A DNA stretch of 58,109 bases from a virus (lineage: Duplodnaviria; Caudoviricetes). The position numbers and the translations under genes are program-made. The stretch covers positions 1 to 58,109 of IMG/VR virus record IMGVR_UViG_3300027983_000019, one strand, 5' to 3'. Shown one piece after another: positions 26,382-40,641 of this stretch. The notes under the pieces were generated by a model. That model did not search any database. It had not been told where the DNA came from and saw only the letters and a program-made list of their open reading frames with translations. Position 1 is the stretch's first letter; each line of letters starts with the position of its first letter.

Positions 26382-26418
26382 ATTAAAATCAAATAAGTAT
26401 TAAGTTATTTTTAATTAG

Positions 26419-26492: not shown

Positions 26493-26536
26493 ATTGTCAT
26501 AATCGTTAGTGATTAACTCACAACATTATGTTATAG

Positions 26537-26608
26537 TAGACATGGAGGGAGTTGAGCCCTCTTAACTAAGGTATAAGCTTAGCGTAATAACCCTTATACG
26601 ACATGTCC
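26537..26608 (-). tRNA. tRNA-Ile(TAT)
   Basis: CTAAG-CTTATAC-CTTAG. Confidence 0.8.
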
Positions 26609-26610
26609 AT

Positions 26611-26701
26611 TGGTAGAGGGTATGGGATTTGAACCCATGCGTCGTTTAACCGACCTAATAACTTTCCAAGTTATCCTCTTAAGCCACTTGAGTAACCCTC
26701 T
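26611..26701 (-). tRNA. tRNA-Ser(GGA)
   Basis: ATAAC-TTGGAAA-GTTAT, long variable arm, encoded CCA. Confidence 0.88.
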
Positions 26702-26753
26702 ATTTTATTTTCTTCCCATACATATAAATATGTGGGAAGTACAAAAACGACCA

Positions 26754-26846
26754 TGGCGGAAGACAAGGGGATTGAACCCTCACTACCCATTAAGGGTAGA
26801 CTTGTTTAGCAGACAAGCTCAACGAACCAATATTTGACTATCTTCC
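26754..26846 (-). tRNA. tRNA-Ser(GCT)
   Basis: CTTGT-CTGCTAA-ACAAG, long variable arm, encoded CCA. Confidence 0.88.
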
Positions 26847-27755
26847 ATTAGTGTGTAGATTATTTATGTACTTAATAATTTTATTAGTTTCTTCTATTAT
26901 AAATTTTTTATGACTTGTTAAATCTTTAACTATATATAATTTTATACCTAATATCTCACATTCTTTTATTTTCTGTTTATCTTTTTCTTTTGTTTTAATT
27001 AAAGAACCATCACCTCTAATGTCTTTGTAGTGGTATATACCATTCCACTCAATACCAAAATTCAATGAGGGTATATAAACATCTAATTCACGATTACCCA
27101 TTAGTGTTAACCTATCATTAAATAAAATAGTTAAATTAGGGAAATAAGTGTTTAGTTCATTTTCTAAATATATTTCAGGTTTAGACCTAAGACCATTTAT
27201 TAATTTATTATTTATTTTATTTCTACACACACCACCACAATATTTTCTTCTATTTAATTGTGTTTTAGTTAACCATAATTTTTTATCACAAACCGGACAA
27301 GTAAACTCAACCTTTGGTTTTGTTAATTTTTCACTTATTTTTCGTTTTATTTCGTTACACTTTTTATCATCAAATCTATCACACAGTTTAACACCTTTTA
27401 AATTGACACTAACTGAGTTTCTTATATTAATTAACCCTTGCTTTGATAGTGTGTACACACTCAATACTCTATCTCTATTAGTTGACGAAGCCGAACAACT
27501 GTGTCCACAATATTTATTACCCCTCACTTCGTATGGTATTACCTCAGAACAATATTCACACATTTTTGGTTCAATGTAATACTTTTCCTTATTCTTTCGA
27601 AGTGTTGTTGTTGTATGTTCACGACCTAATCTCACCATTTTCTCATACGATTTACCTTTATTTGGGTTTTTATCACAATTGACTACATGTGACCCAGCGT
27701 GTTTAGGCGTTTTAATTTCCACCTCACCACAGAATTTACATTCATATTTACACAT
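26838..27755 (-). CDS. Putative free-standing homing endonuclease (zinc-finger repeats plus PD-(D/E)XK/Vsr-like domain) inside tRNA operon B
   Basis: Multiple CxxC and YCxxxC motifs; ELDVYIPSLNFGIEWNGIYHY. Confidence 0.75.
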   Translation of the reverse strand: MCKYECKFCGEVEIKTPKHAGSHVVNCDKNPNKGKSYEKMVRLGREHTTTTLRKNKEKYYIEPKMCEYCSEVIPYEVRGNKYCGHSCSASSTNRDRVLSVYTLSKQGLINIRNSVSVNLKGVKLCDRFDDKKCNEIKRKISEKLTKPKVEFTCPVCDKKLWLTKTQLNRRKYCGGVCRNKINNKLINGLRSKPEIYLENELNTYFPNLTILFNDRLTLMGNRELDVYIPSLNFGIEWNGIYHYKDIRGDGSLIKTKEKDKQKIKECEILGIKLYIVKDLTSHKKFIIEETNKIIKYINNLHTNGR

Positions 27756-27799
27756 ATTACTTTATATATAAATATGCACGTGACACCCAAAACGAATAG

Positions 27800-27870
27800 C
27801 ACAAACGGTTTTAATCGAAAAAACTCGTGAAGCTTTTGGAGAGCCCACCGACACCAAGCCTGTCGTTTGT
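27800..27870 (-). tRNA. tRNA-Trp(CCA), divergent D arm
   Basis: Acceptor ACAAACG/CGTTTGT, anticodon arm GGGCT-CTCCAAA-AGCTT, T-arm GTTTT-TTCGATT-AAAAC. Confidence 0.7.
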
Positions 27871-27875
27871 ATTTG

Positions 27876-27948
27876 TTGTGTCGTAGGGAGTCGAACCCTA
27901 TTATTCTATCTTATCAGGATAGCCACTAAACCGTCCATGCCCGACACA
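27876..27948 (-). tRNA. tRNA-Ile(GAT)
   Basis: CTATC-CTGATAA-GATAG. Confidence 0.8.
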
Positions 27949-27955
27949 ATGTTTG

Positions 27956-28026
27956 CTCTCCGTGGTGGTACTGACCCACCTTCCTCTGATTAACAATCAG
28001 GAGCTTCACTTTAAAGCTTACGAAGA
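27956..28026 (-). tRNA. tRNA-Asn(GTT)
   Basis: CTGA-TTGTTAA-TCAG. Confidence 0.8.
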
Positions 28027-28064
28027 GTATTTCAATTATAAGGTTGGTGACTTATAACGTATTG

Positions 28065-28136
28065 CGGACTGGGAGAATAACGATATCTCGGCCTTCACCT
28101 TAACAGGGTGTTGCTCTTCCTCTGAGCTACCAATCC
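28065..28136 (-). tRNA. tRNA-Asn(GTT)
   Basis: CACC-CTGTTAA-GGTG. Confidence 0.82.
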
Positions 28137-28149
28137 TTTTTTACTTTAG

Positions 28150-28237
28150 CGGAGAGCGGAGGAACCGACCCCCGTACCCTTTCGCGTAGCCTAGGTTTCA
28201 AATCTAGTCGCATCTCCATGACACTGCTTCACTCTCC
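28150..28237 (-). tRNA. tRNA-Ser(TGA)
   Basis: CTAGA-TTTGAAA-CCTAG, long variable arm. Confidence 0.8.
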
Positions 28238-28247
28238 ATTATTTTTG

Positions 28248-28320
28248 GGTGTATGAGGAATTACGATATCCCGACCTTCGATTCCACAAACCGACACTCT
28301 TCCTCTGAGCTACACACACC
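28248..28320 (-). tRNA. tRNA-His(GTG)
   Basis: TCGGT-TTGTGGA-ATCGA, extra 5' G. Confidence 0.85.
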
Positions 28321-28324
28321 ATTT

Positions 28325-28495
28325 TTAATCCAGTTCAACAAAAATTATCATCTTACCTTTTTCTTTTTTAAACTTTAACTCCCCATGGTATCCACCTTGG
28401 TCAGCCTTTTCTCTGTGTTCATCCAAGATTTTATCAAAGTTATCTTGGAACTCCTTTATTTTTACCTCACCTATTTTTCTAACTAAATCACCCAT
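28325..28495 (-). CDS. Small hypothetical protein at the head of tRNA operon B
   Basis: MGDLVRKIGE...; start at 28495 lies downstream of the terminator. Confidence 0.55.
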   Translation of the reverse strand: MGDLVRKIGEVKIKEFQDNFDKILDEHREKADQGGYHGELKFKKEKGKMIIFVELD

Positions 28496-28506
28496 AATGT
28501 CTATGT

Positions 28507-28542
28507 AAAAAAAAATCCCCACCTCGGTTTGAGATGGGGATT
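28507..28542 (-). terminator. Attenuator terminator of tRNA operon B
   Basis: AATCCCCATCTC/GAGGTGGGGATT stem plus T-run. Confidence 0.85.
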
Positions 28543-28567
28543 AAGTAGTTATTTTATTAACTATTAA

Positions 28568-28645
28568 TTACACACATCTCGTCATCTTCGTTATCCACGA
28601 ATTACGACTGATATTAATATTATGTATGTTATTATTAGTTTTCAT
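28568..28645 (-). CDS. Leader peptide B: MKTNNNIHNINISRNSWITKMTRCV
   Basis: Translated by hand; lies between a promoter (28681-28711) and a terminator; codons 4-18 are only N, I, H, S, R, W. Confidence 0.85.
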   Translation of the reverse strand: MKTNNNIHNINISRNSWITKMTRCV

Positions 28646-28730
28646 TTTCTTTTGTTTTTTCCTTGTTTATAAATATACTACAAATATAGTAAAAGTTTAC
28701 CGTTGTGTCAAGTGTTTTTTAATTTATTTT

Positions 28731-29216
28731 CTATTTTTTTTTGTTTTCGGTCTTTACACCCTCTTTAAGTGAGTTTATTGTGTCTAATAAACTTGATGCT
28801 TCCTCATAATTTTCTTCATAAACAGCTTCATCTAATTTATTTTGTAATAAATTGATAATAATTTCGGGTGCCAATTCTTGGTCCACCATCTTATTTCTAT
28901 TTTCATTATTGTAGAATTCCTCAGGTGACATTGATATGGTATATATACTAACACTAGTATTATCACCATCTGTTGTTCCACTATATGAGTTATAACCATC
29001 AACATTAAGACCAGTTGCATCTAACCCAAATGGGTTGTTATTCATACCCCACATTAATTTCATTATCTCTTCATAACGATTTTCATAACCACCTATAATA
29101 CCTAAAAACTTTTTCTTAAAGTCGTCATCAGCCATTCTTTCTCTGAATAGTTTATTTAATTTTTCCCTATCAAAGTTTCCAAACTCATCAAATTCATCAT
29201 CATTAAATTCATTCAT
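28731..29216 (-). CDS. Protein with a C-terminal UvrB/UvrC (UVR) motif
   Basis: KLDEAVYEENYEEASSLLDTINSL. Confidence 0.75.
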   Translation of the reverse strand: MNEFNDDEFDEFGNFDREKLNKLFRERMADDDFKKKFLGIIGGYENRYEEIMKLMWGMNNNPFGLDATGLNVDGYNSYSGTTDGDNTSVSIYTISMSPEEFYNNENRNKMVDQELAPEIIINLLQNKLDEAVYEENYEEASSLLDTINSLKEGVKTENKKK

Positions 29217-29289
29217 AATATATTTCTTTTTATTTAAATGTCGTTCATTTTTATTGTAAAGTCAAGTAAAGAAAAATGGATAAACTTAT

Positions 29290-29529
29290 TTATATAAATC
29301 GTCTTTTTTTAAATAATTTAATTTTTTTATCCTTAACTTTGTAACCTCGTTTTCTTAATTTTTTCATGGATTTATTCATTCTACCATCCTCTCGATTAAC
29401 AACCTTTTTCCTGGTCCCTAATGATTGATTATGTGACTGACCACTATTATAGTTTGGTCCTTTAATTGTACAGCAAGATGATAATATTAGTATAAATAAA
29501 CACACTAATATTTTAAATATTGTTTTCAT
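29290..29529 (-). CDS. Small putative lipoprotein
   Basis: LFILILSS-C. Confidence 0.6.
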   Translation of the reverse strand: MKTIFKILVCLFILILSSCCTIKGPNYNSGQSHNQSLGTRKKVVNREDGRMNKSMKKLRKRGYKVKDKKIKLFKKRRFI

Positions 29530-29571
29530 TTATTTGTGTTAATTTAAGTTTAATATAAATATACACAAAAG

Positions 29572-29839
29572 TAAATAAGGAAGGAATCGAACCCCCACAA
29601 CCTACTTTATTCGGTTATACCTTTCCGTGGTGACTCGGTTTTATATTATAGTATTATTGTTTTCTTGTACAAATTTTAAGGACCACCTGATTAAGGTAGG
29701 TTATTATCTAACATGGGTATCAACCCGTCCCACGCCATAAACCACTACACCACTCACTTTATATATCTCGGATGCGTTAATTAATGGACTTTTGATTCAC
29801 CATTTCGAAGTACGCGTCTACCATTCCGCCACTCATTTA
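29572..29839 (-). ncRNA. tRNA-like RNA with a large (about 170-190 nt) insertion in the anticodon arm
   Basis: D arm GTGGCGGAATGGTAGACGC and T arm GGGGGTTCGATTCC flank a long structured insert. Confidence 0.55.
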
Positions 29840-29843
29840 TTTG

Positions 29844-29912
29844 TAATTAAGGTTGGACTCGAACCAACGACCTCCCCTAAAGGATTGCTCTAACCAACTG
29901 AGCTACTTAATC
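29844..29912 (-). ncRNA. tRNA-like RNA with a shrunken anticodon arm
   Basis: Canonical D and T arms; anticodon arm reduced to TCC-TTTA-GGG. Confidence 0.6.
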
Positions 29913-30160
29913 CACCCTCTCATAACCGACTTGAGTAAGAACCTATTGAGGGAACACTAATATGATGTTTTCGGTTTTCACAGTATCTCCATGGGACTAA
30001 CCCATTGTGATTACCAAACCTCCACTAGTGGTTTTCTACTAGAAATCCGAACTGGTATCTTTGACTTTACTAATAATGGTTAGACACTAACGAGTAGGTA
30101 CTAAACACTTTCGAATTGGGGTAACTAAGATACAAAGTTACCATACACATCGATGATTTG

Positions 30161-30230
30161 TGTTGGGTGGGGGTGTCGAACCCTCATCTCCCGCCTGTGG
30201 CGAGTGTCCTAGCCATTAAACGAACCCAAC
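30161..30230 (-). ncRNA. tRNA-like RNA with a 3-5-nt anticodon loop
   Basis: CTCGCC-ACA-GGCGGG. Confidence 0.6.
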
Positions 30231-30298
30231 AACCAACAATATCAAACTGTAATTATCAATTATTGGTTCTAAAAACAACTATTACAGTAATTGTTTTA

Positions 30299-30767
30299 TG
30301 GTACGGGTGGATGGACTCGAACCACCAAAAACTACTTTTCGGATTACTCTTACTTTTCGTCCACCTCGTCATGGGTTACCCCAAACAAGGCGTGTTTACC
30401 AATTTCACCACACCCGCTTATGTAGTTATTTAACATTGGTACGGAAGAAGGGACTCGAACCCCTAAAAACTACTTTTCAGATTACTCTTACTTTTTCGTT
30501 CACTACCCTAAAGAATAGCGTGTTTACCAATTTCACCACTTCCGTAGTTAAGTCTATACCCCCTCATCCCTCTTCTAATCTTGGGGGTTCCACCTTGTGG
30601 GGTGGATGTGTTTTCATCAAATTCCGTTCAGGTAACGTATTGATTACTATTATTGACTTAGTACATGAGGATGGAATCGAACCATCAAGAACTACTTTTC
30701 AGATTACTCTTACTTTTTCGTTCACTACCCTAAAGAATAGCGTGTTTACCAATTTCACCACTCATGT
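30299..30767 (-). ncRNA. Three related tRNA-Leu-like RNAs with aberrant anticodon arms and a conserved long A-rich variable region
   Basis: Copies at 30299-30417, 30437-30545 and 30662-30767 share GTGGTGAAATTGGTAAACACG and CGAAAA(A)GTAAGAGTAATCYGAAAAGTAGTT; acceptor and T stems covary. Confidence 0.7.
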
Positions 30768-30926
30768 ATATTATCTAATTTTGTTGTCTCTATTGTTATA
30801 CAAACCTAATCATTTTTTATTAGTTTGACAAGTATTTTTGTGTTTTTTTTTATTTTATTTTAAAAAGGTTATCCAACCATTGTAACACTTAATCCTCGTT
30901 GTTGGTACAACTATATGTATAATATA

Positions 30927-31214
30927 TTAAGTAGACAAGTACTTTTTAAAATTTAATTTATTTGGTATTTTATCACCGATATAAATTAACGCCACTGAGT
31001 TAGTTGGAACAATCCCTTTTAGTTCCTCTCTCATCATCCTCTTTATTCTGTTTCTATCAACCGCTCTCTTAAACTTCTTAGAACTAACGGTAAATAAGTA
31101 ACCAGGTGTACCATCTGTAACAATTTTAATTAATACATTGTCCACCACTTTGTTTTTAGCTTCCACACTGAATAACCTATCAATATCTTTATTCTGTTTT
31201 AAACTATACTTCAT
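30927..31214 (-). CDS. rnpA: Ribonuclease P protein component
   Basis: RNR motif VSSKKFKRAVDRNRIKRMMRE. Confidence 0.85.
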   Translation of the reverse strand: MKYSLKQNKDIDRLFSVEAKNKVVDNVLIKIVTDGTPGYLFTVSSKKFKRAVDRNRIKRMMREELKGIVPTNSVALIYIGDKIPNKLNFKKYLST

Positions 31215-31382
31215 GGTACAAATGTAAGTTAAATTTATTTAATAAACAAAAAAAAACCACCCTAAGGTGGTTTATCGGGTAAAATCAAAGGCCTTTTGTC
31301 TACCAAAACTATGTTTCATTTCTCATTGTTGTCAATGCTGTACCCAGACGGTATCACCAAACGAAAGAGGAGTTACACAATA

Positions 31383-31775
31383 TCATTCTTTTAATATCAT
31401 TCTTTTTGTTGAAATTCTATCACCATCAACAATTAATTGATAATAATACTCACCCCTACCAAGACCGTTATAGGTAACAGTTATTTTTGATTCTTGGTCA
31501 TCTAATCTAAAAGCAAAAACTTGATATGTAATATCCTTTATAAGGACTATATATGACACACTGTTCTCAGGTATTAAATACTCAATAATTGTATACCCAT
31601 TTGTTGCTGGGTTTGGGTAATTTTGACCAAGTGTTGGTATTATGGTAACTGTTGAATCCCCAATTAATGTTTCATCAACATGTGTAACTGTATTAACAAA
31701 GGTTTCTAAAATAATTGTGTCAGTCTTTGAACAACCATTAACATCTGTAACGGTTACATGATATTCACCCTTTTT
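31383..31775 (-). pseudogene. Start-less fragment of a T9SS cargo gene (SprB-like repeat plus C-terminal sorting domain)
   Basis: Open frame GEYHVTVTDVNGCS...LGQNYPNPATN...GEYYQLIVDG...TKRMILKE* with an in-frame TAA and no start upstream. Confidence 0.65.
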
Positions 31776-31796
31776 TTATTGTTAATATATATTTAG

Positions 31797-31872
31797 TAGC
31801 GGGAGCCAGAGTCGAACTGACGAATGTATGGCTTATGAGACCATAGAGGAATACCACACCTTCTACCCCACG
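31797..31872 (-). tRNA. tRNA-Met(CAT), initiator-like
   Basis: ATGGT-CTCATAA-GCCAT; unpaired C1. Confidence 0.75.
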
Positions 31873-31877
31873 TTTTG

Positions 31878-32017
31878 TGTACTTCTCAGGATTTGAACCT
31901 GAACGTGTGTACCTTAATTTAATCTACCCATAGTGTGTGGGTGGTTTGTAATCGTGTCCACACAACACTCAAACATTTACCATTAAACTAGGTGCGTCTA
32001 CATTCCGCCACAAGTAC
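31878..32017 (-). ncRNA. tRNA-like RNA with an about 70-nt expansion of the anticodon arm
   Basis: Acceptor GTACTT/AAGTAC, D arm GGCGGAATGTAGACGC, T arm CAGG-TTCAAAT-CCTG. Confidence 0.55.
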
Positions 32018-32039
32018 TTTAATAAGTATATACTAAACT

Positions 32040-32228
32040 TTATTGTTTGTCAAGCCGTTTCCTGACATCTTCGTTTAATTTATCATTACCTTTAATAATG
32101 TGTCTTGGCTCAAACGGACAATGTCGACACCCGTTGGAACAACATTGACCCTTATAAGCCAAGAACTTTTCTGTGAGTATAATACACCCATCTTCTTTGT
32201 AAAAATTTTCTTCGTTAGACATAAACAT
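32040..32228 (-). CDS. Small Cys-rich protein (DUF5522-like)
   Basis: FYKEDG..ILTEKFL..KGQCCSNGCRHCPF. Confidence 0.7.
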   Translation of the reverse strand: MFMSNEENFYKEDGCIILTEKFLAYKGQCCSNGCRHCPFEPRHIIKGNDKLNEDVRKRLDKQ

Positions 32229-32778
32229 ATGATTTCCAATCCTCGTGGATATTTTTATATTGTGATAAGAACTCCATATAAGTTGGTCTATACGGTTCGT
32301 GTCTTATTGTTTTACCTGTTAGTAATTCATATTCCTTCAGTGACATATTACCCTTTTCAAGGTTACAAGTACCACAACAGGTTGCTAAATTTTCCCACGA
32401 GTTTTTACCACCTTTTGATTTTGGTTTAACGTGGTCAATCGTTAAGTTTTTTTCAGATGAACAATATACACACTTGTACTCATCTCTTCTGTAAATATTA
32501 AATCTTGATAATGTTACTTTTTTATGTGGTACATATACATAATTGTTTAATCTAACAATTGTTGGTCTTTTAAAACCTTTACCATCATCCGTTAATAACG
32601 TTGGACATTCACCGATTAAATTTAAATAATCCTCGTCTCTAATAGAAACCTTAATAGGGCTATCTTCTTCATACGATACAACATCAGCTTTCCCTTTGTA
32701 AGCGAGCCTAAACCCTCTATCAAAGTTCATCACAGTCATTGGTGACGCATCCATATTTAATACTAATATTTTGTTCAT
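32215..32778 (-). CDS. HNH endonuclease (McrA-like)
   Basis: RDEYKCVYC, LTIDHVKPKSKGG, WENLATCCGTCN. Confidence 0.9.
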   Translation of the reverse strand: MNKILVLNMDASPMTVMNFDRGFRLAYKGKADVVSYEEDSPIKVSIRDEDYLNLIGECPTLLTDDGKGFKRPTIVRLNNYVYVPHKKVTLSRFNIYRRDEYKCVYCSSEKNLTIDHVKPKSKGGKNSWENLATCCGTCNLEKGNMSLKEYELLTGKTIRHEPYRPTYMEFLSQYKNIHEDWKSYVYV

Positions 32779-32822
32779 AACATTTTAATTATAAATAGTC
32801 TAAACTATTAAGTCAAGTGAAG

Positions 32823-32922
32823 TGACCCATAAAGGAATCGAACCTTATATTTGACAGGATAAAACCCATCATTACCGAAGTATGTTATATATCATTTGCA
32901 CAAATGTTTCAATACACGGGTC
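32823..32922 (-). ncRNA. Degenerate tRNA-like element
   Basis: Acceptor GACCCGT/ATGGGTC and T arm AAGG-TTCGATT-CCTT; no clear anticodon. Confidence 0.4.
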
Positions 32923-32927
32923 AAAAG

Positions 32928-33008
32928 TACCTTCGGTGGGAGTCGAACCCACACGCCATAAGACAATAAATCCTAAATCTATCGTGTCTACCATTCCACC
33001 ACGAAGGC
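32928..33008 (-). tRNA. tRNA-Leu(TAG)
   Basis: ATAGA-TTTAGGA-TTTAT. Confidence 0.88.
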
Positions 33009-33038
33009 ATTTATTAGTCTTTCCTAATAGTCTTAAAG

Positions 33039-33122
33039 TAGAGGTGATGGGAGTCGAACCCACAAGCCACAAAGGACATTGCCGCTTAAAAACAACGTGT
33101 ATACCAGTTTCACCACACCTCC
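33039..33122 (-). tRNA. tRNA-Leu(TAA)
   Basis: TTGTT-TTTAAGC-GGCAA, Leu-type D and variable arms. Confidence 0.82.
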
Positions 33123-33136
33123 ATGTGTAATTATTG

Positions 33137-33207
33137 TATCCCCAGATGGAATCGAACCACCATCATACTCAAAATCCTGAGTGGTCGTAACTCCACATAT
33201 ACAGGAC
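33137..33207 (-). ncRNA. Degenerate tRNA-like element (6-nt anticodon loop)
   Basis: ACTCA-GGATTT-TGAGT; T arm GGTGG-TTCGATT-CCATC. Confidence 0.4.
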
Positions 33208-33212
33208 GTTTG

Positions 33213-33287
33213 TGAGGGTAGAGGGAGTCGAACCCCCGGCCTATTGTTTGTAAGACAACCACTCTAAACCAACTGAGCTATACCCCC
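33213..33287 (-). tRNA. tRNA-Val(TAC)
   Basis: TTGT-CTTACAA-ACAA. Confidence 0.9.
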
Positions 33288-34078
33288 TTATATTCGTAAT
33301 GTTTTTTCCATTTTCTAATCGAGTTATCACTAACACCATACTTTTTACCTGTACCAACATAACCTAATGTTTCTATCTCTTCAAGTAGTTGGTTATATGT
33401 TGGTCTAACAACCTTTCGTTTAGATACTTCACTACAACCAACACACCTTAAACTTTTATTGTTTATTTTACAACCACAACTACAAAAATTTTCTTTTTTT
33501 AACCTTTTATTATTTTTACCTGAGAAAGTATCTAAAGTGGTGTCACAGTTGGGACAAACTATTCTAAGATTCTCAATTCTATTGTCGGTATTAATGCCGT
33601 TTATATGGTCTAATATTAAAGACATCTTTTTACCCATCCATTCATCGTTTTGACCACACAACTCACATATTCTCTCTTTAATCCCTTCCTTATATAATCT
33701 TTTTTTTAGTGTTGACGTACCGTATGTACTACCACTAACTAAAATTTCCTCTGTTGGTATTTTTAACCTTTTCCTCGTTATACCATTATTAAAATGTGAT
33801 ATATCTAAATTATATAAATTCATATAATTTTTAATTATTTTATATGATGCTCCAGTGATTGTAATACCCAAATCAATACATAGTTCCCTAATACTTCCAT
33901 AATCTTTAATTTTAGAACTTAACACTTTTTCGTTATATACTCTATGGTTATATTCAATAAAATTATCATTAGCGTATACATAAACTTCATTAACAGGTGT
34001 TTTTAACATACTAGCCACCATAAACGGACCACACTTACTATAGTTTTTTTTAATAATATTTTTTTCATGTTCTCTCAT
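33278..34078 (-). CDS. HNH homing endonuclease inside tRNA operon C
   Basis: LILDHINGINTDNRIENLRIVCPNC; C-terminal HTH-like GKKYGVSDNSIRKW. Confidence 0.85.
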   Translation of the reverse strand: MREHEKNIIKKNYSKCGPFMVASMLKTPVNEVYVYANDNFIEYNHRVYNEKVLSSKIKDYGSIRELCIDLGITITGASYKIIKNYMNLYNLDISHFNNGITRKRLKIPTEEILVSGSTYGTSTLKKRLYKEGIKERICELCGQNDEWMGKKMSLILDHINGINTDNRIENLRIVCPNCDTTLDTFSGKNNKRLKKENFCSCGCKINNKSLRCVGCSEVSKRKVVRPTYNQLLEEIETLGYVGTGKKYGVSDNSIRKWKKHYEYKGV

Positions 34079-34136
34079 AATACTAACCTTTACATATAAA
34101 TACGTGTGGTATTGTAAAAGTTCGATATTTATTTAG

Positions 34137-34209
34137 AGCTAACGATGGGATTCGAACCCACTTCCTCTCAGATACCAACCGAGTGTTCAACCGCATGAAC
34201 TTCGTAAGC
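34137..34209 (-). tRNA. tRNA-Thr(GGT)
   Basis: CTCGG-TTGGTAT-CTGAG. Confidence 0.82.
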
Positions 34210-34214
34210 GTTTG

Positions 34215-34289
34215 TGGGACCACTCAGAGTTGAGCTGAGGCCTCATGTGTTTCAAACATGTGTACAATAACCACCTATACGATAGTCCC
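34215..34289 (-). tRNA. tRNA-Phe(GAA)
   Basis: CATGT-TTGAAAC-ACATG. Confidence 0.8.
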
Positions 34290-34301
34290 ATTATTTATTT
34301 G

Positions 34302-34373
34302 AGGTGAATGAGAGAATCGAACTCTCGTCATTGGATTACAAAACCAACATAATTACCACTATACTAATTCACC
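34302..34373 (-). tRNA. tRNA-Thr(TGT)
   Basis: TTGGT-TTTGTAA-TCCAA. Confidence 0.82.
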
Positions 34374-34379
34374 TTATTG

Positions 34380-34449
34380 TAGCGTACCCGAGGTTCAAAC
34401 TCGGTTAATCATCCTTATGAGAGATAATCCTTTTTCACTAAGTTACGCC
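34380..34449 (-). tRNA. tRNA-Met(CAT) (or Ile2)
   Basis: TATCT-CTCATAA-GGATG. Confidence 0.7.
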
Positions 34450-34467
34450 ATTACTATTATTTTAAAG

Positions 34468-34552
34468 TTGTCTCGGTAGGGTTCGAACCTACAACGGATT
34501 TCTCTCTCTCCCCGGTCAAAACGGGACGTGTTGCCAATTACACCACGAGACA
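34468..34552 (-). tRNA. tRNA-Gln(TTG) with a long variable region
   Basis: TCCCG-TTTTGAC-CGGGA; U1-A72 pair. Confidence 0.82.
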
Positions 34553-34575
34553 ATATTACCAATAAATCAAAGAAC

Positions 34576-34614
34576 AAAAAAAAACCCGAACTCAATAATT
34601 TGAATTCGGGTTTG
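34576..34614 (-). terminator. Attenuator terminator of tRNA operon C
   Basis: AAACCCGAATTCA/TGAGTTCGGGTTT stem plus T-run. Confidence 0.85.
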
Positions 34615-34636
34615 TTTGATTGTATATCTTAAATTG

Positions 34637-34735
34637 TCATGAGACATTAGACACACCAAACCCGAATACAGTTTGTAACTGTACCATAAAGACTTGCGTC
34701 AGGGTAAATAAAGATATGTTTGTTAATGTTTTCAT
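34637..34735 (-). CDS. Leader peptide C: MKTLTNISLFTLTQVFMVQLQTVFGFGVSNVS
   Basis: Translated by hand; lies between a promoter (34771-34801) and a terminator; codons 9-24 are only L, F, T, Q, V, M. Confidence 0.85.
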   Translation of the reverse strand: MKTLTNISLFTLTQVFMVQLQTVFGFGVSNVS

Positions 34736-34810
34736 TTTGTTTTTAATTTTCTTTGTTTATAAATATACTACAAATATAGTAAAAGTTCTCTTATAAGTCA
34801 AGTATTTTTT

Positions 34811-35878
34811 TTATTTATTTTTAATATACTTGAAATCTTCGTTTTCTTCCAATGATAATAGTGTGTGATATATCAATTTAATCACATTTTTAACATCTTT
34901 TTTATCCACAGTCTCAACCGTAGTGTGCATGTATTTTAATGGTAATGATATCAATTGACAAGCAACACCACCATTAGATGTGTAAAAAGCGTTTGTATCT
35001 GTTCCAGAGTTACCATTATATGTACCCCTTTGGAATTTAATTTCTTTTTCCTTAGCTACACCAATTACTTTCTTATGTAAATTTAGTTGGATGTCTCCAC
35101 CTCTAAAAATAACTGGACCGAGACCTGACTTTGTATCACCAGCTGTTTGTTTGTTCATGTGTGGTGTATGTGTATCATGACATACATCCGTTATAATCGC
35201 AACATTAGGTTTAATTGTTTGAGCTATCATTTTAGCTCCGAATAAACCAATTTCTTCCTGAACTGAATTAACGATGTATAGAGTGTAAGGTAATTTATCA
35301 CCTTTATCTTTTAATTTTTTAGCGACTTGTGCTATCATATACCCACCAATTCTGTTGTCCAACGCTCTTGATATGTATTTTCCTTTTCTTTCTTTGAATT
35401 GTGTATTATATACCATAGGACAACCTACAAATATACCCATACCCTCAACTTCTTCTTTTGATGATGCCTCAACATCGACAAATAGGTTGTCAACACTTGG
35501 TTGTAATTCACTTGAACTCTTTCTTTCGTGTATAGCTAACCAACCAAAGTGACCTTCAACTACACCATTTTCACCAAGTATTTGAACACTCGTTCCAGGT
35601 GCTATTTGATGGTCTGAACCACCATTTCGAACTACCCTAATAAATCCATCACTATCAATGTGGTTAACCGTCCACCCAATCTCATCAGCGTGAGCCTCAA
35701 TAACTACTTTATAGTCTTTTCCTGGGTTAACAACCCCAACAGCTGTTCCATATACATCGGTAAATGTTTCATCAACATAATCCTTTATATAATCCAACCA
35801 AATTTGTTGACCTTCGGTTTCCATCCCCGTAGGTGATTTGGCGTTAAGGTATTTTTCTAAAAACTCTTCTTTTTTCAT
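34811..35878 (-). CDS. M42-family aminopeptidase
   Basis: EAHADEIG, RALDNRIG, VQEEIGLFGA, GTDT and YMHT motifs. Confidence 0.9.
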   Translation of the reverse strand: MKKEEFLEKYLNAKSPTGMETEGQQIWLDYIKDYVDETFTDVYGTAVGVVNPGKDYKVVIEAHADEIGWTVNHIDSDGFIRVVRNGGSDHQIAPGTSVQILGENGVVEGHFGWLAIHERKSSSELQPSVDNLFVDVEASSKEEVEGMGIFVGCPMVYNTQFKERKGKYISRALDNRIGGYMIAQVAKKLKDKGDKLPYTLYIVNSVQEEIGLFGAKMIAQTIKPNVAIITDVCHDTHTPHMNKQTAGDTKSGLGPVIFRGGDIQLNLHKKVIGVAKEKEIKFQRGTYNGNSGTDTNAFYTSNGGVACQLISLPLKYMHTTVETVDKKDVKNVIKLIYHTLLSLEENEDFKYIKNK

Positions 35879-35905
35879 ATTATTTAATTATAAATTTATG
35901 TGTTT

Positions 35906-36334
35906 CTAATTTTTTGATTGGTTTTGTGTTATTATTAATTTGGTAACTATCACCTTTTTTTTTAGGTACCCCTCATCATGTAGTCTATTTATTATTTCAT
36001 CGTAAACTAATTCATTATAATATGAGTAATATTCGTAAAATTCATTTGGGTTATTACCTTTTCTTGGGTTTCGTTGACACCAATGTGGGTTTTCTATTAA
36101 CATATACCCATTTTTAACCAAAAAACTATATATAGACCACCGTAATGGGTTTTTCCCAACAAACTCTGTTAATATATTAGGTTTATCTTTTATTTCTCCT
36201 CGATTCCAATAACAGAATGGAACCCACCGTTCAGTATTAAGAGACTTTAGGAATAATTTTAAATCATCCAAATCAACTGAATTAATTAAAATAGAATAAT
36301 CCAATCTAAGTTTATTTAATTCATTAACTACCAT
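35906..36334 (-). CDS. Hypothetical protein
   Basis: 142-aa ORF. Confidence 0.65.
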   Translation of the reverse strand: MVVNELNKLRLDYSILINSVDLDDLKLFLKSLNTERWVPFCYWNRGEIKDKPNILTEFVGKNPLRWSIYSFLVKNGYMLIENPHWCQRNPRKGNNPNEFYEYYSYYNELVYDEIINRLHDEGYLKKKVIVTKLIITQNQSKN

Positions 36335-36370
36335 TCTTTTTCGTTTATATAATTATGTGTCCGATGTTAA

Positions 36371-37120
36371 TCAACTACCCCACTTATTCCACTCAGGGTC
36401 ATCCATTACTAACTTACCGTTTCTACCCATATGTTCAGGGTATAATTGGAACACGGGGTCAGATTGTGTTAATTCTTTGGTATTTAAATCCATAATGGAT
36501 AATTTACCAATATATGTAGCTCCCGTATCCATATTCCACACATTACTAATGTTCACTGGTCTTCCATGTTTGAATGTACTAATGGTTGGTGTGTGTCCGA
36601 TATAAACTTCTTTAAACATGTCCGTACCCTCTAAATAACCATTTGTTAAATCAGACCAAAAAACTCTGTCCCAAAAATATGTGGTTTTTTCTTGTTTATC
36701 GACTGGTATATCTGTATTAAAACCAGCGTGTAAAAATAATCGATTTTGTTCATCAATGTGGTATAATTCAGTTTCCTCTAGGTATTGAATGTGTTTATCA
36801 ACTAATTCGGGTTTATTGTAATAAGAGAGGTGGGTAGCTTTACCACCTTGGTGGTACCAAGTATCACTATATTCATCCACACCATTTTTTAATGTGTGTC
36901 TGAGAAAATCTAATGTCCATTCATCATGATTACCCCTTATTTTTATTAAGTTTTTAATTTTAATTAATTCCTCAATACATTCAGCCACATCAGGCCAACC
37001 ATCACAAACGTCACCCAAAGATATTAACTTATCATTTTCATAATCAAAGTTAACAGCTTCTAATACTTGTTTTAAAGCCCTATACCCACCATGGATATCC
37101 CCAATCACCAATTCTCTCAT
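36371..37120 (-). CDS. Metallophosphoesterase (Ser/Thr phosphatase-like)
   Basis: GDIHG, LGDVCD, RGNHD, HAG, GHTPT and DTGA motifs. Confidence 0.9.
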   Translation of the reverse strand: MRELVIGDIHGGYRALKQVLEAVNFDYENDKLISLGDVCDGWPDVAECIEELIKIKNLIKIRGNHDEWTLDFLRHTLKNGVDEYSDTWYHQGGKATHLSYYNKPELVDKHIQYLEETELYHIDEQNRLFLHAGFNTDIPVDKQEKTTYFWDRVFWSDLTNGYLEGTDMFKEVYIGHTPTISTFKHGRPVNISNVWNMDTGATYIGKLSIMDLNTKELTQSDPVFQLYPEHMGRNGKLVMDDPEWNKWGS

Positions 37121-37477
37121 ATTAATTTTTTATGTAACTCCATCAAAAACCCAATTATGTGTGTGTCGTGGACACCCGAACGAATTTCCTCAAATGTTTT
37201 ACACACTTCAATCGAAGTACCCTTATTAGATGCACTAAACACATTATAAACTAACCCATAATTTATTCCTAAACTCACCGGTAATCGTTTTAACTTGTTC
37301 CCCAAAGGTGTTAGTTAGTTCTTTTCTGAGGTCGGACATTAAACTAGGTTTATTATTCCTAAAAGTTTATTATTCCTAAAACAATCCATTTGATGGGTTT
37401 CAATAACCCATGTTAAAACACCCCGACTACACGTTATTGGTAAACTTACATTAGTACTGTCATTTATTGTTATCATA

Positions 37478-37711
37478 CTATTTAATTTTATTTGGTATAG
37501 TGTTTTTAAGTTTATCAAAATCAGAACACATATCTTCCTCATTCTGATATAGGTAAGATGTTTCAGAATCAACTTCCCCACCTTTTTCCACCACCTCAAT
37601 GGAAGGTAAACCATATGAACTTTTAAAAAAATGGTAACCATTTTTAATTATGTTTTTTGAATCATTCTGTAATGAAGTGTTTTTAAACTTAACTATTGTA
37701 TTTTTCGACAT
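37478..37711 (-). CDS. Hypothetical protein
   Basis: 77-aa ORF. Confidence 0.55.
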   Translation of the reverse strand: MSKNTIVKFKNTSLQNDSKNIIKNGYHFFKSSYGLPSIEVVEKGGEVDSETSYLYQNEEDMCSDFDKLKNTIPNKIK

Positions 37712-38001
37712 AATCTTGTAACTTTAAATAAATTATTGAAATAACTTGTCTATCACAATTTTTTGTTTCTACCCCATCTATGGAATAGATAATATCATAA
37801 TAATTACATAATTGGTGTGGTATTAAAAGGTATAGGATTTCTTTTTTATGTAAATTACATCACCTTTACTATCAATGGTGTCTGTGTAGTAGAATAAATT
37901 ACTAAAATATATTCTACGACCAACCATATCACACTCCTTTACCATTTCGATGGTTGATTCAGATTCTTGTCTACCTAAAAGGTGATTGTCAAAAACACCC
38001 A

Positions 38002-38187
38002 TCAAACTAGTGTTTTAGTTAAGTGGTTATAATCTTTTAGGTATTTTTCATAAGAAGCCTCATCCATCTCTTTTAACCTATTAAATTGAATCCCTATCCT
38101 ACTTTCAGAAATAGTAATTTCACCTTTTTTAATTTGTTTCATCTTAACGGTGATATTCTTCTCAATTTGTCTTATTTGTTTTAACAT
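38002..38187 (-). CDS. Hypothetical protein
   Basis: 61-aa ORF after a TATATTTG promoter. Confidence 0.6.
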   Translation of the reverse strand: MLKQIRQIEKNITVKMKQIKKGEITISESRIGIQFNRLKEMDEASYEKYLKDYNHLTKTLV

Positions 38188-38265
38188 ACAACGGGTTTTA
38201 AAAGATTAAACATTTATTTAAACAAATATAAAAAACTTTTCTTAATAAAACAAGTAATTAGAAAT

Positions 38266-38772
38266 CTAATTAAAAATATCTATACCCACCCAAATTTTTT
38301 TAGGTATAAACTCTAATCTTTTTATCACCATAGACACACCAATTATTGACTTATATACCCCATCTTCAACTCTCCAACTCACCAAATTTTGGTTGTGATT
38401 ATCAATATAATATAATCTACCCATTGGTACTAAATTAAGTGGTCGAACGGATACTAAATCCTGACCAATTGTTCTAGCCATTACTTGTTCAGCCATTGGT
38501 AATAAAGTATTATGATGTATAGGTTCACCATTAATAAATGGGTACATAATATCATTCAATATTTGTCTATTAACTTCAGTTGCAACTTGTTCAGATAATA
38601 ATGCTGTCAATTCAGCCTCAGCGTCGATGTTATGGAATGCTGTTAAATCTTGTGTTAATTCAGGTGTCCAAGTAACTCTTAAGTTCCTTGTTCGTATTTC
38701 TACTACTCCGTTATGAACATAATTACCAGTTATAAAGTTATGTGTGTAAGAACTTTTTTTAATCATTATCAT
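38266..38772 (-). CDS. Small protein built from two T4 gp23-like major capsid segments
   Basis: RNLRVTWTPELTQDLTAFHNIDAEAELTALLSEQVATEVNRQIL, then LPMAEQVMARTIGQDLVSVRPL. Confidence 0.75.
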   Translation of the reverse strand: MIMIKKSSYTHNFITGNYVHNGVVEIRTRNLRVTWTPELTQDLTAFHNIDAEAELTALLSEQVATEVNRQILNDIMYPFINGEPIHHNTLLPMAEQVMARTIGQDLVSVRPLNLVPMGRLYYIDNHNQNLVSWRVEDGVYKSIIGVSMVIKRLEFIPKKIWVGIDIFN

Positions 38773-39013
38773 TAGTTAATGTGTCAGATAATGTTTGGTA
38801 TAATCTGTTATTTATGGGTCGGATTGTGTACCTTGATGAGATTGATTGGTTAGTTTGGTATTCATTCGAGACTACCTCCGTAAGTTCCATGGGTATGTAT
38901 GGTACAAACATATAACCAACATCTAAAAAATTGTTTCCTATTTTAAGGTGTACACCCTTACCTGTGATGAAATTATGACGAATATTGTCACATTTTATTA
39001 AAACGTTGTCCAT
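38759..39013 (-). CDS. Small protein with a gp23-like C-terminal segment
   Basis: NFLDVGYMFVPYIPM...SRY. Confidence 0.6.
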   Translation of the reverse strand: MDNVLIKCDNIRHNFITGKGVHLKIGNNFLDVGYMFVPYIPMELTEVVSNEYQTNQSISSRYTIRPINNRLYQTLSDTLTNDND

Positions 39014-39024
39014 GTTAGTAAATA

Positions 39025-39933
39025 CTACATAACTTCTAAATTATGTGTACACTTTGGGCACGAATAACTCACATTAAATCTTTTATCGGTCACTATTTGT
39101 GTTCCACTACAACAATCATAAACACTTGTATCATCTTTTTTAGGTTTTTCATTAACTAAATCATACAAACAAATTAGGTCTTTATTAATAATAAAGGCAT
39201 ATCTATGTTTTCTAGTTCTAGATATCCAAACACCCTCTTTTTCTTTAGTAGTACCCCTTGGGTTAACTTTACCACCATCAGTGTAGGAAAAGAAATCACT
39301 CTTTTTGTTGGTTAATCCGTAATAACTGAAATTACATACTTGGTATATACTACCAGTGTGTCTACTATCATCAGCTAAAGTGATTACAGCTCTAATTTCT
39401 TCTTTTTTAAGGAGTTTAATACTTGTTGATAATAAAAACGATGTCGCGTTGGTTCCATTTAAGTTTGGCATAACACATAATCTACTTAGTTCTAATACCG
39501 ATTGGTCAGTGTTAGGCAAACCAAACCAACCTTTTAGTGCAACATTACCTTGTGGGTTAGAAAACGCCGTTACACCTAATAATTCACCACCACCCTTATG
39601 ATACATACCATAAGAAAATTTAGCAAAGAATTTAGCTGCACCTAAGTAATGATAGGTCTTTATGAACTCATATGCTATTTTTTTATCGATTAGTTTAATT
39701 ACGTAATCTTTTTTCTTAAAATCGTTGTTGTGTGTTTTTTCAGGTTCGGATTTCATCTTAAATATTGGGAAGTTCCCATGTGGTACTGTGTATTCATCAC
39801 CACTATCTTTGTCTTGGATTAGGTGACCACCATCCAACGGTTTCAAATAAACCCCGATATTATTAGTCTTACTTAAAAAAACATCACCAGGGTTTAAATC
39901 ACCTAATAATGTGTGTTCTTCATTAAAATTCAT
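39025..39933 (-). CDS. Mom-like (GNAT-fold) DNA modification protein
   Basis: FIKTYHYLG, ELSRLCV, VITLADDSRHTGSIYQVCNFSYYG. Confidence 0.7.
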   Translation of the reverse strand: MNFNEEHTLLGDLNPGDVFLSKTNNIGVYLKPLDGGHLIQDKDSGDEYTVPHGNFPIFKMKSEPEKTHNNDFKKKDYVIKLIDKKIAYEFIKTYHYLGAAKFFAKFSYGMYHKGGGELLGVTAFSNPQGNVALKGWFGLPNTDQSVLELSRLCVMPNLNGTNATSFLLSTSIKLLKKEEIRAVITLADDSRHTGSIYQVCNFSYYGLTNKKSDFFSYTDGGKVNPRGTTKEKEGVWISRTRKHRYAFIINKDLICLYDLVNEKPKKDDTSVYDCCSGTQIVTDKRFNVSYSCPKCTHNLEVM

Positions 39934-40342
39934 GTCTTAATATGTGTTTATTGGGTTCGATGTTTATTCTAAAAACTGTTGATAGATTTTCTATTTTAGA
40001 TATGTCAACAGCTAATAAGTTGTAATCAACACTCACCACCCCGTTAGGTTCTATAGAACCATTAGCTCTGGTCGCTAAACCAAATTCACCATTTAATATA
40101 CCATTGATAATTAGTTCGTTATCTGTTTGTAAATCACCAACCATTGTCCCCCCAACCATTCTTAAATTAGTTATCTGATGTGTTGGGTTTTCGGTTAAAT
40201 GGGTTTGTGGTTGATATAGTTCAAAATATCCACCCAAGTATGTTTTTTTATTAACACATAACTTAGATAATAACTCAAACGGGTACACCCTATCATTCTT
40301 ATTTATTACATTAGATTCAAGTATTTTAATTGACATTCTCAT
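39923..40342 (-). CDS. Degenerate prohead-protease-like (gp21-like) protein
   Basis: INKNDRVYP, THQITNL, GLATRANGS (SSRG position altered), LLAVDI. Confidence 0.6.
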   Translation of the reverse strand: MRMSIKILESNVINKNDRVYPFELLSKLCVNKKTYLGGYFELYQPQTHLTENPTHQITNLRMVGGTMVGDLQTDNELIINGILNGEFGLATRANGSIEPNGVVSVDYNLLAVDISKIENLSTVFRINIEPNKHILRHEF

Positions 40343-40641
40343 GTGTGTATGAATATTGGTGTGTTTTCACCCATCCATGCTTGGATTATATTAAATGAAA
40401 AATACTCATGAGCTTCCTCAAAAGACATATTATCTCTCGTTATTAAAATATCAATAATCTTGGAGACACTATAGGCCACAACTGGACCTAAATCTATTCG
40501 TTCAGCCATACCAATGATAGCCTCATCGAAACCATCACATGTTAACGCCTCTTCATTGTATTCTATAATTTCTTGATGTGTCATACGATAATAATAGGTA
40601 TAAAAAATGGGGTTATAAACCCCATTTTTATTAATTACCAT
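40339..40641 (-). CDS. Conserved phage protein
   Basis: DGFDEAIIG...EEAHEYFSFNIIQAWMGENTPIF. Confidence 0.7.
   Translation of the reverse strand: MVINKNGVYNPIFYTYYYRMTHQEIIEYNEEALTCDGFDEAIIGMAERIDLGPVVAYSVSKIIDILITRDNMSFEEAHEYFSFNIIQAWMGENTPIFIHT

Follow-up and report, generated by a model that had tools for sequence, protein, structure and literature searches.

Putative leader-peptide attenuators in front of phage tRNA gene arrays

Leader-peptide attenuators are classically represented by trpL, hisL, leuL, pheL, thrL, and ilvL of amino-acid biosynthesis operons. pheM, the leader of the E. coli pheST operon, attenuates phenylalanyl-tRNA synthetase, and the T-box riboswitch, which needs no translation, uses its specifier loop and conserved T-box sequence to bind uncharged tRNA directly. 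The viral record IMGVR_UViG_3300027983_000019 of IMG/VR (Duplodnaviria; Caudoviricetes; positions 1 to 58,109), hereafter the window, is a single AT-rich contig of 58,109 bases. It carries four units, A, B, C, and D, that share the order of promoter, conserved untranslated region, short open reading frame (ORF), intrinsic terminator, and tRNA genes. Unit C, the subject of this analysis, is probably a ribosome-mediated (leader-peptide) transcription attenuator that controls an operon of phage tRNA genes, and it belongs to a family of similar devices. The parts, the match between leader codons and downstream tRNAs, the specific complementarity of leader and terminator, and the recurrence in relatives are established from the sequence. 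We infer that the leader ORF is translated, in which direction the switch operates, and that the supply of tRNA, not solely of amino acid, is relevant; tRNA supply is taken as the variable because the output of the device is tRNA.

All tRNA genes called by ARAGORN at its default threshold and all Rfam tRNA hits of the window lie on the minus strand. The regulatory parts of unit C, in the order of transcription, are as follows.

34771..34801, minus strand: promoter, with TTGACT (34801..34796), a 17-nt spacer, and TATATT overlapping the TATATTTG box (34778..34771)
34736..34770, minus strand: A-rich 5′ untranslated region, TATATTTATAAACAAAG..., conserved in the alignment of units A-D
34637..34735, minus strand: leader ORF, 32 codons plus TGA (34639..34637), peptide MKTLTNISLFTLTQVFMVQLQTVFGFGVSNVS
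34664..34711, minus strand: sensor core, codons 9-24, 16 codons solely for L, F, T, Q, V, and M
34667..34683, minus strand: hairpin TACAGTT-ACA-AACTGTA (loop ACA), directly 5′ of segment 2
34657..34667, minus strand: segment 2, the predicted antiterminator strand, ATTCGGGTTTG, inside codons 23-27
34604..34614, minus strand: segment 3, CAAACCCGAAT, the terminator 5′ arm plus one base, which pairs with segment 2 or with the 3′ arm
34573..34613, minus strand: intrinsic terminator, stem 34613..34582 with 14 pairs, a loop of 4, and −17.9 kcal/mol, then a T run (34581..34573)

The genes of the array follow; each tRNA was found by both ARAGORN and Rfam except the Met-like element.

34467-34552, minus strand: tRNA-Gln(TTG), first gene past the terminator
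34380-34449, minus strand: Met-like tRNA element, CAT in its loop CTCATAA, sub-threshold in the window
34301-34373, minus strand: tRNA-Thr(TGT)
34214-34289, minus strand: tRNA-Phe(GAA)
34136-34209, minus strand: tRNA-Thr(GGT)
33278..34078, minus strand: HNH endonuclease ORF of 266 aa, inserted in the array (Pfam HNH and HNH_3)
33212-33287, minus strand: tRNA-Val(TAC)
33038-33122, minus strand: tRNA-Leu(TAA)
32927-33008, minus strand: tRNA-Leu(TAG), last gene of unit C

The promoter of unit C is of the TTG/TAnnTTTG type, which we take to be the Bacteroidetes type. Its 18-nt core, ACTTTTACTAYATTTGTA, occurs free of mismatches at all four window units, each time on the minus strand, and with up to 3 mismatches it has 10 matches in the window against 0.94 expected. 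The leader start ATG (34735) lies 66 nt past the promoter TTG, and by-eye inspection of the 5′ untranslated region showed no Shine-Dalgarno-like motif. The stop codon is 21-24 nt ahead of the terminator, which ranks third among the 20 terminator-like sites listed in a scan of 20000..39999, and tRNA-Gln begins about 20 nt past the T run. Downstream of the leader are tRNAs and the inserted HNH endonuclease, not the amino-acid biosynthesis enzymes or synthetases that such attenuators usually control; a promoter-like site and an HNH_5 ORF come after tRNA-Leu(TAG). Since the leader carries Val and Leu codons, tRNA-Val, tRNA-Leu(TAA), and tRNA-Leu(TAG) are assigned to the same putative regulated unit as tRNA-Gln.

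The original prediction held that codons 9-24 (TTA TTT ACC CTG ACG CAA GTC TTT ATG GTA CAG TTA CAA ACT GTA TTC) use only amino acids whose tRNAs follow. At the level of amino acids the run of 16 is there; at the level of codons, however, it shortens to 9, because GTC is unread by Val(TAC) under strict wobble. Of the predicted tRNAs, Gln, Thr, Phe, Thr, Val, Leu, and Leu are called, whereas Met falls below threshold. With leader start codons excluded here and in all later codon counts, 20/31 codons of the leader are read by its own downstream tRNAs, and each of the 8 downstream anticodons, the weak Met-like element counted, has at least one cognate leader codon. The six amino acids L/F/T/Q/V/M have a background frequency of 0.31 in the long ORFs of the window, and a run of 16 was reached in 0/200,000 simulations. 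Two diverged copies of unit C, at loci L120 and L128, carry a tRNA-Met(CAT) called by ARAGORN after tRNA-Gln, in the order seen in unit C. The leader has 32 codons in 4/4 members of the C family; substitutions in the core stay within L/F/T/Q/V/M, including swaps of Q to L, V to L, and L to Q and the two-base changes CAA to TTA and TTA to CAA, while the flanks vary freely.

The other three units of the window have the following parts.

23760..23980, minus strand: unit A, promoter at 23980, leader 23915..23823 (MITNKPTYKPSDAKAGTDCGYNHNCRDLRY), segment 2 GTCGAG (23842..23837), terminator 23791..23760; tRNAs Tyr, Pro, Asp, Gly, Ala, and Cys, with Lys further on
28514..28711, minus strand: unit B, promoter at 28711, leader 28645..28568 (MKTNNNIHNINISRNSWITKMTRCV), segment 2 GAGATG (28580..28575), terminator 28542..28514; tRNAs His, Ser, Asn, Asn, Ile(GAT), Trp, an ORF, then Ser, Ser, Ile(TAT), and Arg(ACG), several of them picked up only by eye or with ARAGORN at a relaxed threshold
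49193..49370, minus strand: unit D, promoter, leader 49312..49250 (MTIITNIERREERETYSHRI) with the core GAG AGA AGA GAA GAA AGA GAG, segment 2 ATCGGAT (49260..49254) overlapping the stop codon, terminator at about 49224..49193; tRNAs Glu(TTC) and Arg(TCT)

Leaders A, B, C, and D contain 16/29, 15/24, 20/31, and 7/19 codons read by their own tRNAs, with background frequencies of 0.26, 0.25, 0.26, and 0.10, respectively. The true assignment of leaders to operons scores 58, and the runner-up among the 24 permutations scores 44. The matched runs of unit B (15 codons) and unit D (7 codons) are unique in the six frames of the window. Codon choice also tracks the tRNA in detail: for arginine, unit D uses AGA with Arg(TCT) and unit B uses CGT with Arg(ACG). 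The leader of unit B further has ATA with Ile(TAT), ATT/ATC with Ile(GAT), and TGG with Trp(CCA), the last of these tRNAs found by relaxed ARAGORN only. In unit B, a small ORF (about 56 aa, by eye; 28327-28494, minus strand) separates the terminator from the first tRNA, an arrangement also seen in a unit of the 636 kb phage (L157, 548-820). A possible fifth unit of a different build occupies 22515-22834 on the minus strand and was missed by the detector described below because its ORF exceeds 50 codons. This ORF (22834..22625) has 69 codons, 16 of them for Lys and concentrated near its end; alternative hairpins come after it, with GACUAACC/GGUUAGUC immediately behind the stop and GAUUGACU capable of pairing with the terminator's 5′ arm and loop. 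This terminator spans 22550..22515, and tRNA-Lys(TTT) follows at 22509.

The design recurs outside the window. A search with a 22-nt promoter pattern returned 21 loci, comprising one IMG/VR contig and 20 metagenome stretches, 13 of which have tRNA genes downstream of the motif (ARAGORN); L136 ends 55 nt past it. The loci include near-copies of unit A (L123) and unit D (L130), diverged copies of unit C (L120, L128, L131, and L139), and a B-like unit (L001). L121, L124, L127, L133, L135, and L137 carry the leader MRTNNTHKHFSKSSKWFSNKSELGTGRVLYIS followed by Lys, His, Phe, Trp, and Ser tRNAs, a grouping not present in the window that the leader nonetheless fits. In bacterial and archaeal species genomes, the 22-nt pattern gave 3 matches, all without tRNAs and taken as chance. 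A looser 16-nt pattern gave 118 mostly unrelated IMG/VR loci, among which only L001 has a tRNA within 400 nt of the motif; these are not a clean control, as two genuine-looking units occur elsewhere in L012 and L088.

In blastn comparisons with GenBank phages, the leader had no match, and matches were confined to the M42 peptidase gene, the HNH genes, and tRNAs. At the DNA level, the M42 gene weakly resembles two unannotated huge-phage genomes labelled 'uncultured phage', with lengths of 634,780 and 636,363 bases, and is the sole stretch of the window with DNA similarity to them. In the part of Al-Shayeb et al. 2020 (PMC7162821) considered here, the 634 kb and 636 kb genomes are given as complete, genomes above 634 kb are predicted to replicate in Bacteroidetes and assigned to the Mahaphage clade, and up to 67 tRNAs per genome are reported. 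These predicted hosts agree with the promoter type, itself our own assignment.

The tRNA hits of Rfam were located in the two huge-phage genomes (LR745206.1 and LR756504.1) and the arrays were scanned with a detector that looks for a terminator at most 150 nt upstream of a tRNA and an ATG-initiated ORF of 12-50 codons ending at most 90 nt before the terminator, with no criterion of composition. The detector found 26 units in the window, LR745206.1, LR756504.1, three metagenome loci, and the IMG/VR contig. Across units, at least 19 amino-acid combinations are represented. A selection of leaders, with the tRNAs that follow them, is given below.

MKTIAMIIRMRIIRPKMLG: tRNAs Arg, Ile, and Met
MTTTQQIQQQQINQTD: three tRNA-Gln
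MKTVNTNIAIVEIAVIGGAEEGV...: tRNAs Glu, Ala, Ile, Val, Gly, and Glu
MKNLTNIFWHFHF...: tRNAs His and Phe
MKNYKTYKGCDAKADKGCDY...: tRNAs Lys, Tyr, Asp, Gly, Gly, Ala, and Cys
LSLCLSLSLSL, in L157 (found with a relaxed distance limit): tRNAs Leu, Ser, and Cys

The relaxed limit or other scans yielded more units, in L164, L166 (three), L167, L012, and L088. The unit of L159 is doubtful, with 3/24 codons matched. Two unrelated tRNA-rich phages were scanned as negative controls: in Microbacterium phage Cece, which has 50 tRNAs on the array strand, the detector found 0 units, and in phage C48C1, which has 8 tRNAs, it found 3 loose candidates, whose matched codons number 4/48, 1/14, and 1/42. All leaders share the N-terminus M-[KRT]-T-[IVN]-x-N-I, which is made of A/T-rich codons and matches the tRNAs at background only; it may reflect common descent or an unstructured start region where Shine-Dalgarno pairing is absent.

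Statistics were computed over a main set of 24 units. L127 and L121, near-copies of L137, were left out; unit B was added by hand, its small ORF pushing the first tRNA past the 150-nt limit; and the tRNA list of unit C was ended at Leu(TAG) with the Met-like element included. In this set, 293/651 leader codons are read by the unit's own tRNAs, compared with a mean of 122.1 (sd 15.8, maximum 207) for permuted tRNA sets, and the observed number was reached by 0/200,000 shuffles. The match is specific to the reading frame, with 119/651 and 86/651 codons matched in the other two frames. It is also positioned: codons 2-6 are at background, 14-21 of the 24 units match at codons 8-16, and the match returns to background towards the stop. 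A set with one unit per amino-acid combination (19 units, in which the doubtful L159 and five homologous units were dropped and L157 was added) gave 229/505 matched codons against 91.1 ± 13.8, again reached by 0/200,000 shuffles, and the own tRNA set ranked first for 11/19 leaders. As for coverage, the leaders contain cognate codons for 118/130 distinct anticodons of their own downstream tRNAs, while permuted leaders cover 66.1 ± 6.0 (maximum 87; 0/20,000 reach 118). Up to 14 different anticodons are represented within one leader.

Where units stand in series on one strand, the first leader has the amino acids of all tRNAs ahead, and later leaders drop those already passed. In L155, a K/Q/D/Y leader precedes tRNA-Asp, a K/Q/Y leader precedes Tyr, Tyr, and Gln, and a KKKK leader precedes the Lys tRNAs; the same nesting is found in L142, L143, L145, and L150. 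Several internal leaders sit directly behind a tRNA with no promoter motif between, which suggests that internal leaders would share one primary transcript.

Leader and terminator are also complementary. The predicted 11-bp pairing in unit C is indeed perfect, with ATTCGGGTTTG (34667..34657) complementary to CAAACCCGAAT (34614..34604) over its whole length; 3/20,000 dinucleotide shuffles of the leader reached an 11-nt perfect complement. Over the 24 units, duplexes were sought in the stretch that begins at leader codon 8 and extends 12 nt beyond the stop. There, the leader pairs with its own terminator 5′ arm through its 3′ part at a mean of −11.7 kcal/mol, compared with −6.9 for the leaders of other units, and the sum of −280.4 was reached by 0/100,000 permutations (−169.9 ± 11.3). 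The own leader is the best partner for 9/24 terminators; in unit C, the duplex amounts to −17.0 kcal/mol and ranks 1 of 24 leaders. Relative to the last base of the stop codon, the end of segment 2 ranges from 32 nt before it to 7 nt after it (46 nt before it in the doubtful L159), and the distance from the stop codon to the terminator is 16-32 nt in all 24 units. In homologous units across genomes, the terminator stems are quite different, and the leader segments differ so as to match them: L137 pairs GAACTTGG with CCAAGTTC where L142 pairs GTTCGG with CCGAAC, and window unit A pairs GTCGAG with CTCGAC where the unit of L160 pairs GGTCAG with CTGACT.

The hairpin TACAGTT/AACTGTA that had been noticed 5′ of the 11-nt segment, and suggested as something that might act as a pause or protector, is present at 34683..34667, adjoins segment 2 without overlap, and is invariant in 4/4 members of the C family, hence without covariation. 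Unit B has a predicted 1:2 pairing. A stable hairpin ending at most 3 nt 5′ of segment 2 occurs in only 8/24 units, and as a general part of the device such a hairpin was set aside as weak.

In folding calculations on the nascent RNA up to the terminator loop, the minimum-energy structure of units A, C, and D pairs the terminator 5′ arm with the 3′ part of the ORF, over 6, 8, and 7 contiguous pairs, respectively, with up to 11 possible in C. In unit B, an upstream partner initially sequesters segment 2 (ACAUACAU with AUGUGUGU), which is predicted to pair with the terminator arm only when a ribosome-sized block rests on codons 1-17. With an assumed ribosome footprint of −15 to +14 nt around the A-site codon, the antiterminator stays formed for ribosomes at sensor codons 1-19 in C, 1-17 in B, and 1-13 in D, and ribosomes further on (codons 21-31 in C) free the terminator arm.

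On these grounds, it is hypothesized that RNA polymerase starts at the promoter and that the short ORF is translated while being made. When charged tRNAs are scarce, the L/F/T/Q/V/M codons would be read slowly and the ribosome would lag upstream of segment 2. Segment 2 (34667..34657) would then capture the terminator 5′ arm upon its emergence, the terminator hairpin would be blocked, and the polymerase would continue into the tRNA genes for Gln, (Met), Thr, Phe, Thr, Val, Leu, and Leu. With fast decoding, the ribosome would pass segment 2 and reach the stop codon 21-24 nt before the terminator, where it would keep segment 2 open together with the helices that separate it from segment 3, such that the terminator forms and transcription halts. 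The sensed quantity would be the decoding rate, hence the charged tRNA of host and phage jointly, and the net result would be a negative feedback on the supply of the tRNAs encoded downstream. In serial units, each would sense only the tRNAs still ahead, and transcription would enter the array only as far as needed. This polarity, in which slow decoding leads to read-through, is proposed because the leaders sample nearly every downstream anticodon, the sensor codons lie 5′ of segment 2, and later gates drop the tRNAs already transcribed. The state without leader translation is probably read-through as well, since a regular 1:2 protector is missing (8/24 units).

The attenuator predicted originally, with a segment competing for the terminator, has stood up at every point that could be probed in the sequence: it is borne out by the frame-specific tRNA match, the three further window units, the distant relatives with fitting leaders, the complementarity of leaders to their own terminators over 24 units, and the ribosome-dependent nascent fold. 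Several observations nonetheless weigh against it. Homologous and nested units are not independent, so that the permutation figures overstate the case, a bias that the test on 19 types lessens but does not remove. Wobble rules were assumed, and the Met-like element of unit C scores 21.8 bits against the Rfam cut-off of 29 and is uncalled by relaxed ARAGORN. In the footprint model, ribosomes stalled at codons 21-24 of unit C cover segment 2 and favor termination; the 3′ end of the 16-codon run may thus reflect RNA constraints and not sensing. A ribosome on the stop codon of unit C leaves segment 2 just behind the footprint and still able to pair, and blocking from that position would have to rest on melted inner helices and steric hindrance, which is an argument from the model. 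The predicted antiterminators of units A and B comprise only 6 bp, and in 3/24 units the own leader ranks 10, 20, and 21 of 24. The 2:3 helix of the C family shows a single compensatory pair (UA to AU, L120, alignment columns 83/130), which costs the L120 terminator one pair and is non-significant, with 124/500 shuffles reaching it; the C family alignment shows 12 terminator pairs, of which 2 have changed on both sides. Contigs of 4 sequencing runs over 34540-34830 gave partial cover, in which informative variants were not found. Single Met(CAT) genes and tRNAs behind protein genes have no unit. Finally, the 14 sequencing runs matching 32900-36400 are all DNA or DNA-like, and no RNA run was found among them.

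The same parts could operate with reverse polarity, where efficient translation of the leader promotes read-through and tRNAs are made when decoding is good, as in a feed-forward device. The nearness of the stop codon to the terminator (16-32 nt in 24 units) would suit such a scheme, as would the simple model in which a ribosome on the stop of unit C leaves segment 2 uncovered. We nevertheless consider it unlikely: the assumed footprint of about 12-15 nt past the A site falls short of the terminator, whose distance is 16-32 nt; segment 2, sought only between codon 8 and a point 12 nt beyond the stop, always lies inside the ORF or at its end, where a translating ribosome removes it; and the nested leaders suit the rule of reading on if anything ahead is scarce, not that of reading on only if everything is plentiful. 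A switch independent of translation, a kind of multi-specifier T-box whose codon-like triplets would serve as specifiers for direct tRNA binding, would accord with tRNAs being the regulated products and with the choice between terminator and antiterminator that T-box leaders likewise make. Against this, the match is frame-specific (293 vs 119 and 86 of 651), every unit has an ATG, the shared N-terminus M-[KRT]-T-x-x-N-I, and a stop 16-32 nt before the terminator, and one leader represents up to 14 anticodons. Neither a T-box nor any other Rfam family was found in the leader (gathering threshold; E ≤ 1). Rfam gave no T-box match in 20000..52000 (gathering) or in 32850..34850 (E ≤ 1); in unit C it found tRNAs only, and its small RNA matches in the leader are at chance level (MicC with 26.5 bits against a cut-off of 90; others with E of 0.3-0.9). 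This makes a translation-independent switch quite improbable.

No greater weight is given to the proposal that each short ORF is a small gene in its own right, or an early transcript, ending at an ordinary terminator, that the codon match serves only their efficient translation, and that the tRNAs are expressed by constitutive read-through or from other promoters. Some arrays of relatives do start without a leader, as this would have it, but a functional peptide would not be expected to track the neighboring tRNAs through 19 combinations and nested subsets or to tolerate swaps of Q to L, and the complementarity of leader and terminator arm would be left without a role. Chance resemblance in AT-rich DNA, where short ORFs and hairpins are common and the promoter-like sites of the region (107) barely differ from the shuffled expectation (101.8), is hardly credible: 0/200,000, 0/100,000, and 0/20,000 permutations reached the observed values, the runs of units B and D are unique in the six window frames, and the design recurs in independent genomes. 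At the level of sequence statistics, this reading is already refuted.

If ribosome-mediated attenuation is indeed at work, the logic of the attenuator appears here to be applied to the tRNA genes themselves, which would be a direct, codon-resolved feedback loop on decoding capacity and would explain how arrays of dozens of tRNA genes in very large phages are controlled. A further-reaching proposal, on which we are evenly divided, is a codon-resolved tRNA homeostat in which chained, translated 'test tracks' gate sub-operons and replacement tRNAs are switched on upon loss of host tRNA. Its trigger could be phage-induced decay of the host translation apparatus or host defenses that cut tRNAs, and the tRNA arrays would then be an inducible counter-measure and not constitutive cargo. 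It has long been asked at what times, and for what reasons, phages require tRNAs of their own; this would become testable, with the leaders stating the shortages that the phage expects. From sequence alone, the leaders also mark the bounds of tRNA transcription units and hint at the codons that odd tRNAs decode, and the units could serve as natural, compact sensors of translation speed for chosen codons.

Several other features of the tRNA region were observed. A homologue of M42 glutamyl-aminopeptidase (34811-35878) and a DUF5522 ORF (32040-32228), both on the minus strand and assigned by Pfam, flank unit C. HNH endonuclease ORFs are located in or beside tRNA arrays at 33278-34078 and 32215-32778 (Pfam, minus strand) and, by eye, at about 26893-27757; a GIY-YIG-like ORF (by eye) comes after tRNA-His in L001. 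These ORFs are presumably homing endonucleases that shuffle the content of the arrays. A lone tRNA-Met(CAT) behind a promoter, usually without leader or terminator, is found in L137 (6300-6400), L143 (871), L146, L147, L154, and the window (31796-31872); it would fit an initiator tRNA, beyond the reach of elongation-based sensing. Among the tRNA genes is a 95-aa ORF (30927-31214, minus strand) for the RNase P protein subunit (Pfam Ribonuclease_P, E 2.7e-10). Three tandem tRNA-like genes of 106-116 nt (30302-30417, 30440-30545, and 30662-30767, minus strand) score above the Rfam cut-off, and two of them have the anticodon TTA ('Stop') and an 11-nt insert in ARAGORN intron mode. Recoding of the stop codon TAA was considered and is not supported: under code 11, 0.748 of the window already falls in stretches of 100 or more codons that are free of stops. 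At 29571-29838 (minus strand), ARAGORN intron mode finds a tRNA-Leu(AAG) with a 178-nt insert, and no Rfam intron family matched there at the gathering threshold.

Leader-peptide attenuation of tRNA genes or arrays was not found described in the literature searched, which covered few subscription journals, so that an earlier description is possible; in that literature, the operons under leader-peptide attenuation were all protein-coding, such as those for amino acids or resistance. The main text of PMC7162821 has 0 occurrences of 'attenuat' and 0 of 'leader', and the part of it considered here does not discuss the regulation of tRNA genes.

The phage units resemble T-box riboswitches in that tRNA status would be sensed and a terminator or an antiterminator chosen, but their leaders have no T-box match in Rfam and their signal is frame-specific. 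With pheM they would share leader-peptide attenuation of a component of the translation apparatus, and pheM too responds to the level of charged tRNA; however, pheM controls the synthetase for one amino acid on a bacterial chromosome, not tRNA genes. The closest likeness is to trpL-type leaders, with which the phage units have in common a short ORF rich in regulatory codons, an intrinsic terminator, a segment that competes for the terminator 5′ arm, and, as proposed here, a fold decided by the position of the ribosome. ilvL and thrL sense more than one amino acid, as the phage leaders would. In contrast to the trpL type, the 1:2 'protector' hairpin is irregular in the phage units (8/24), which are encoded by phages and carry signals that we regard as Bacteroidetes-type, with no Shine-Dalgarno-like motif seen by eye. 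In place of single-codon runs, a phage leader represents as many as 14 anticodons, roughly one to a few times apiece, and the units are serial and nested within one array. Their targets are tRNAs, such that the loop would close on decoding capacity and not on amino-acid synthesis.

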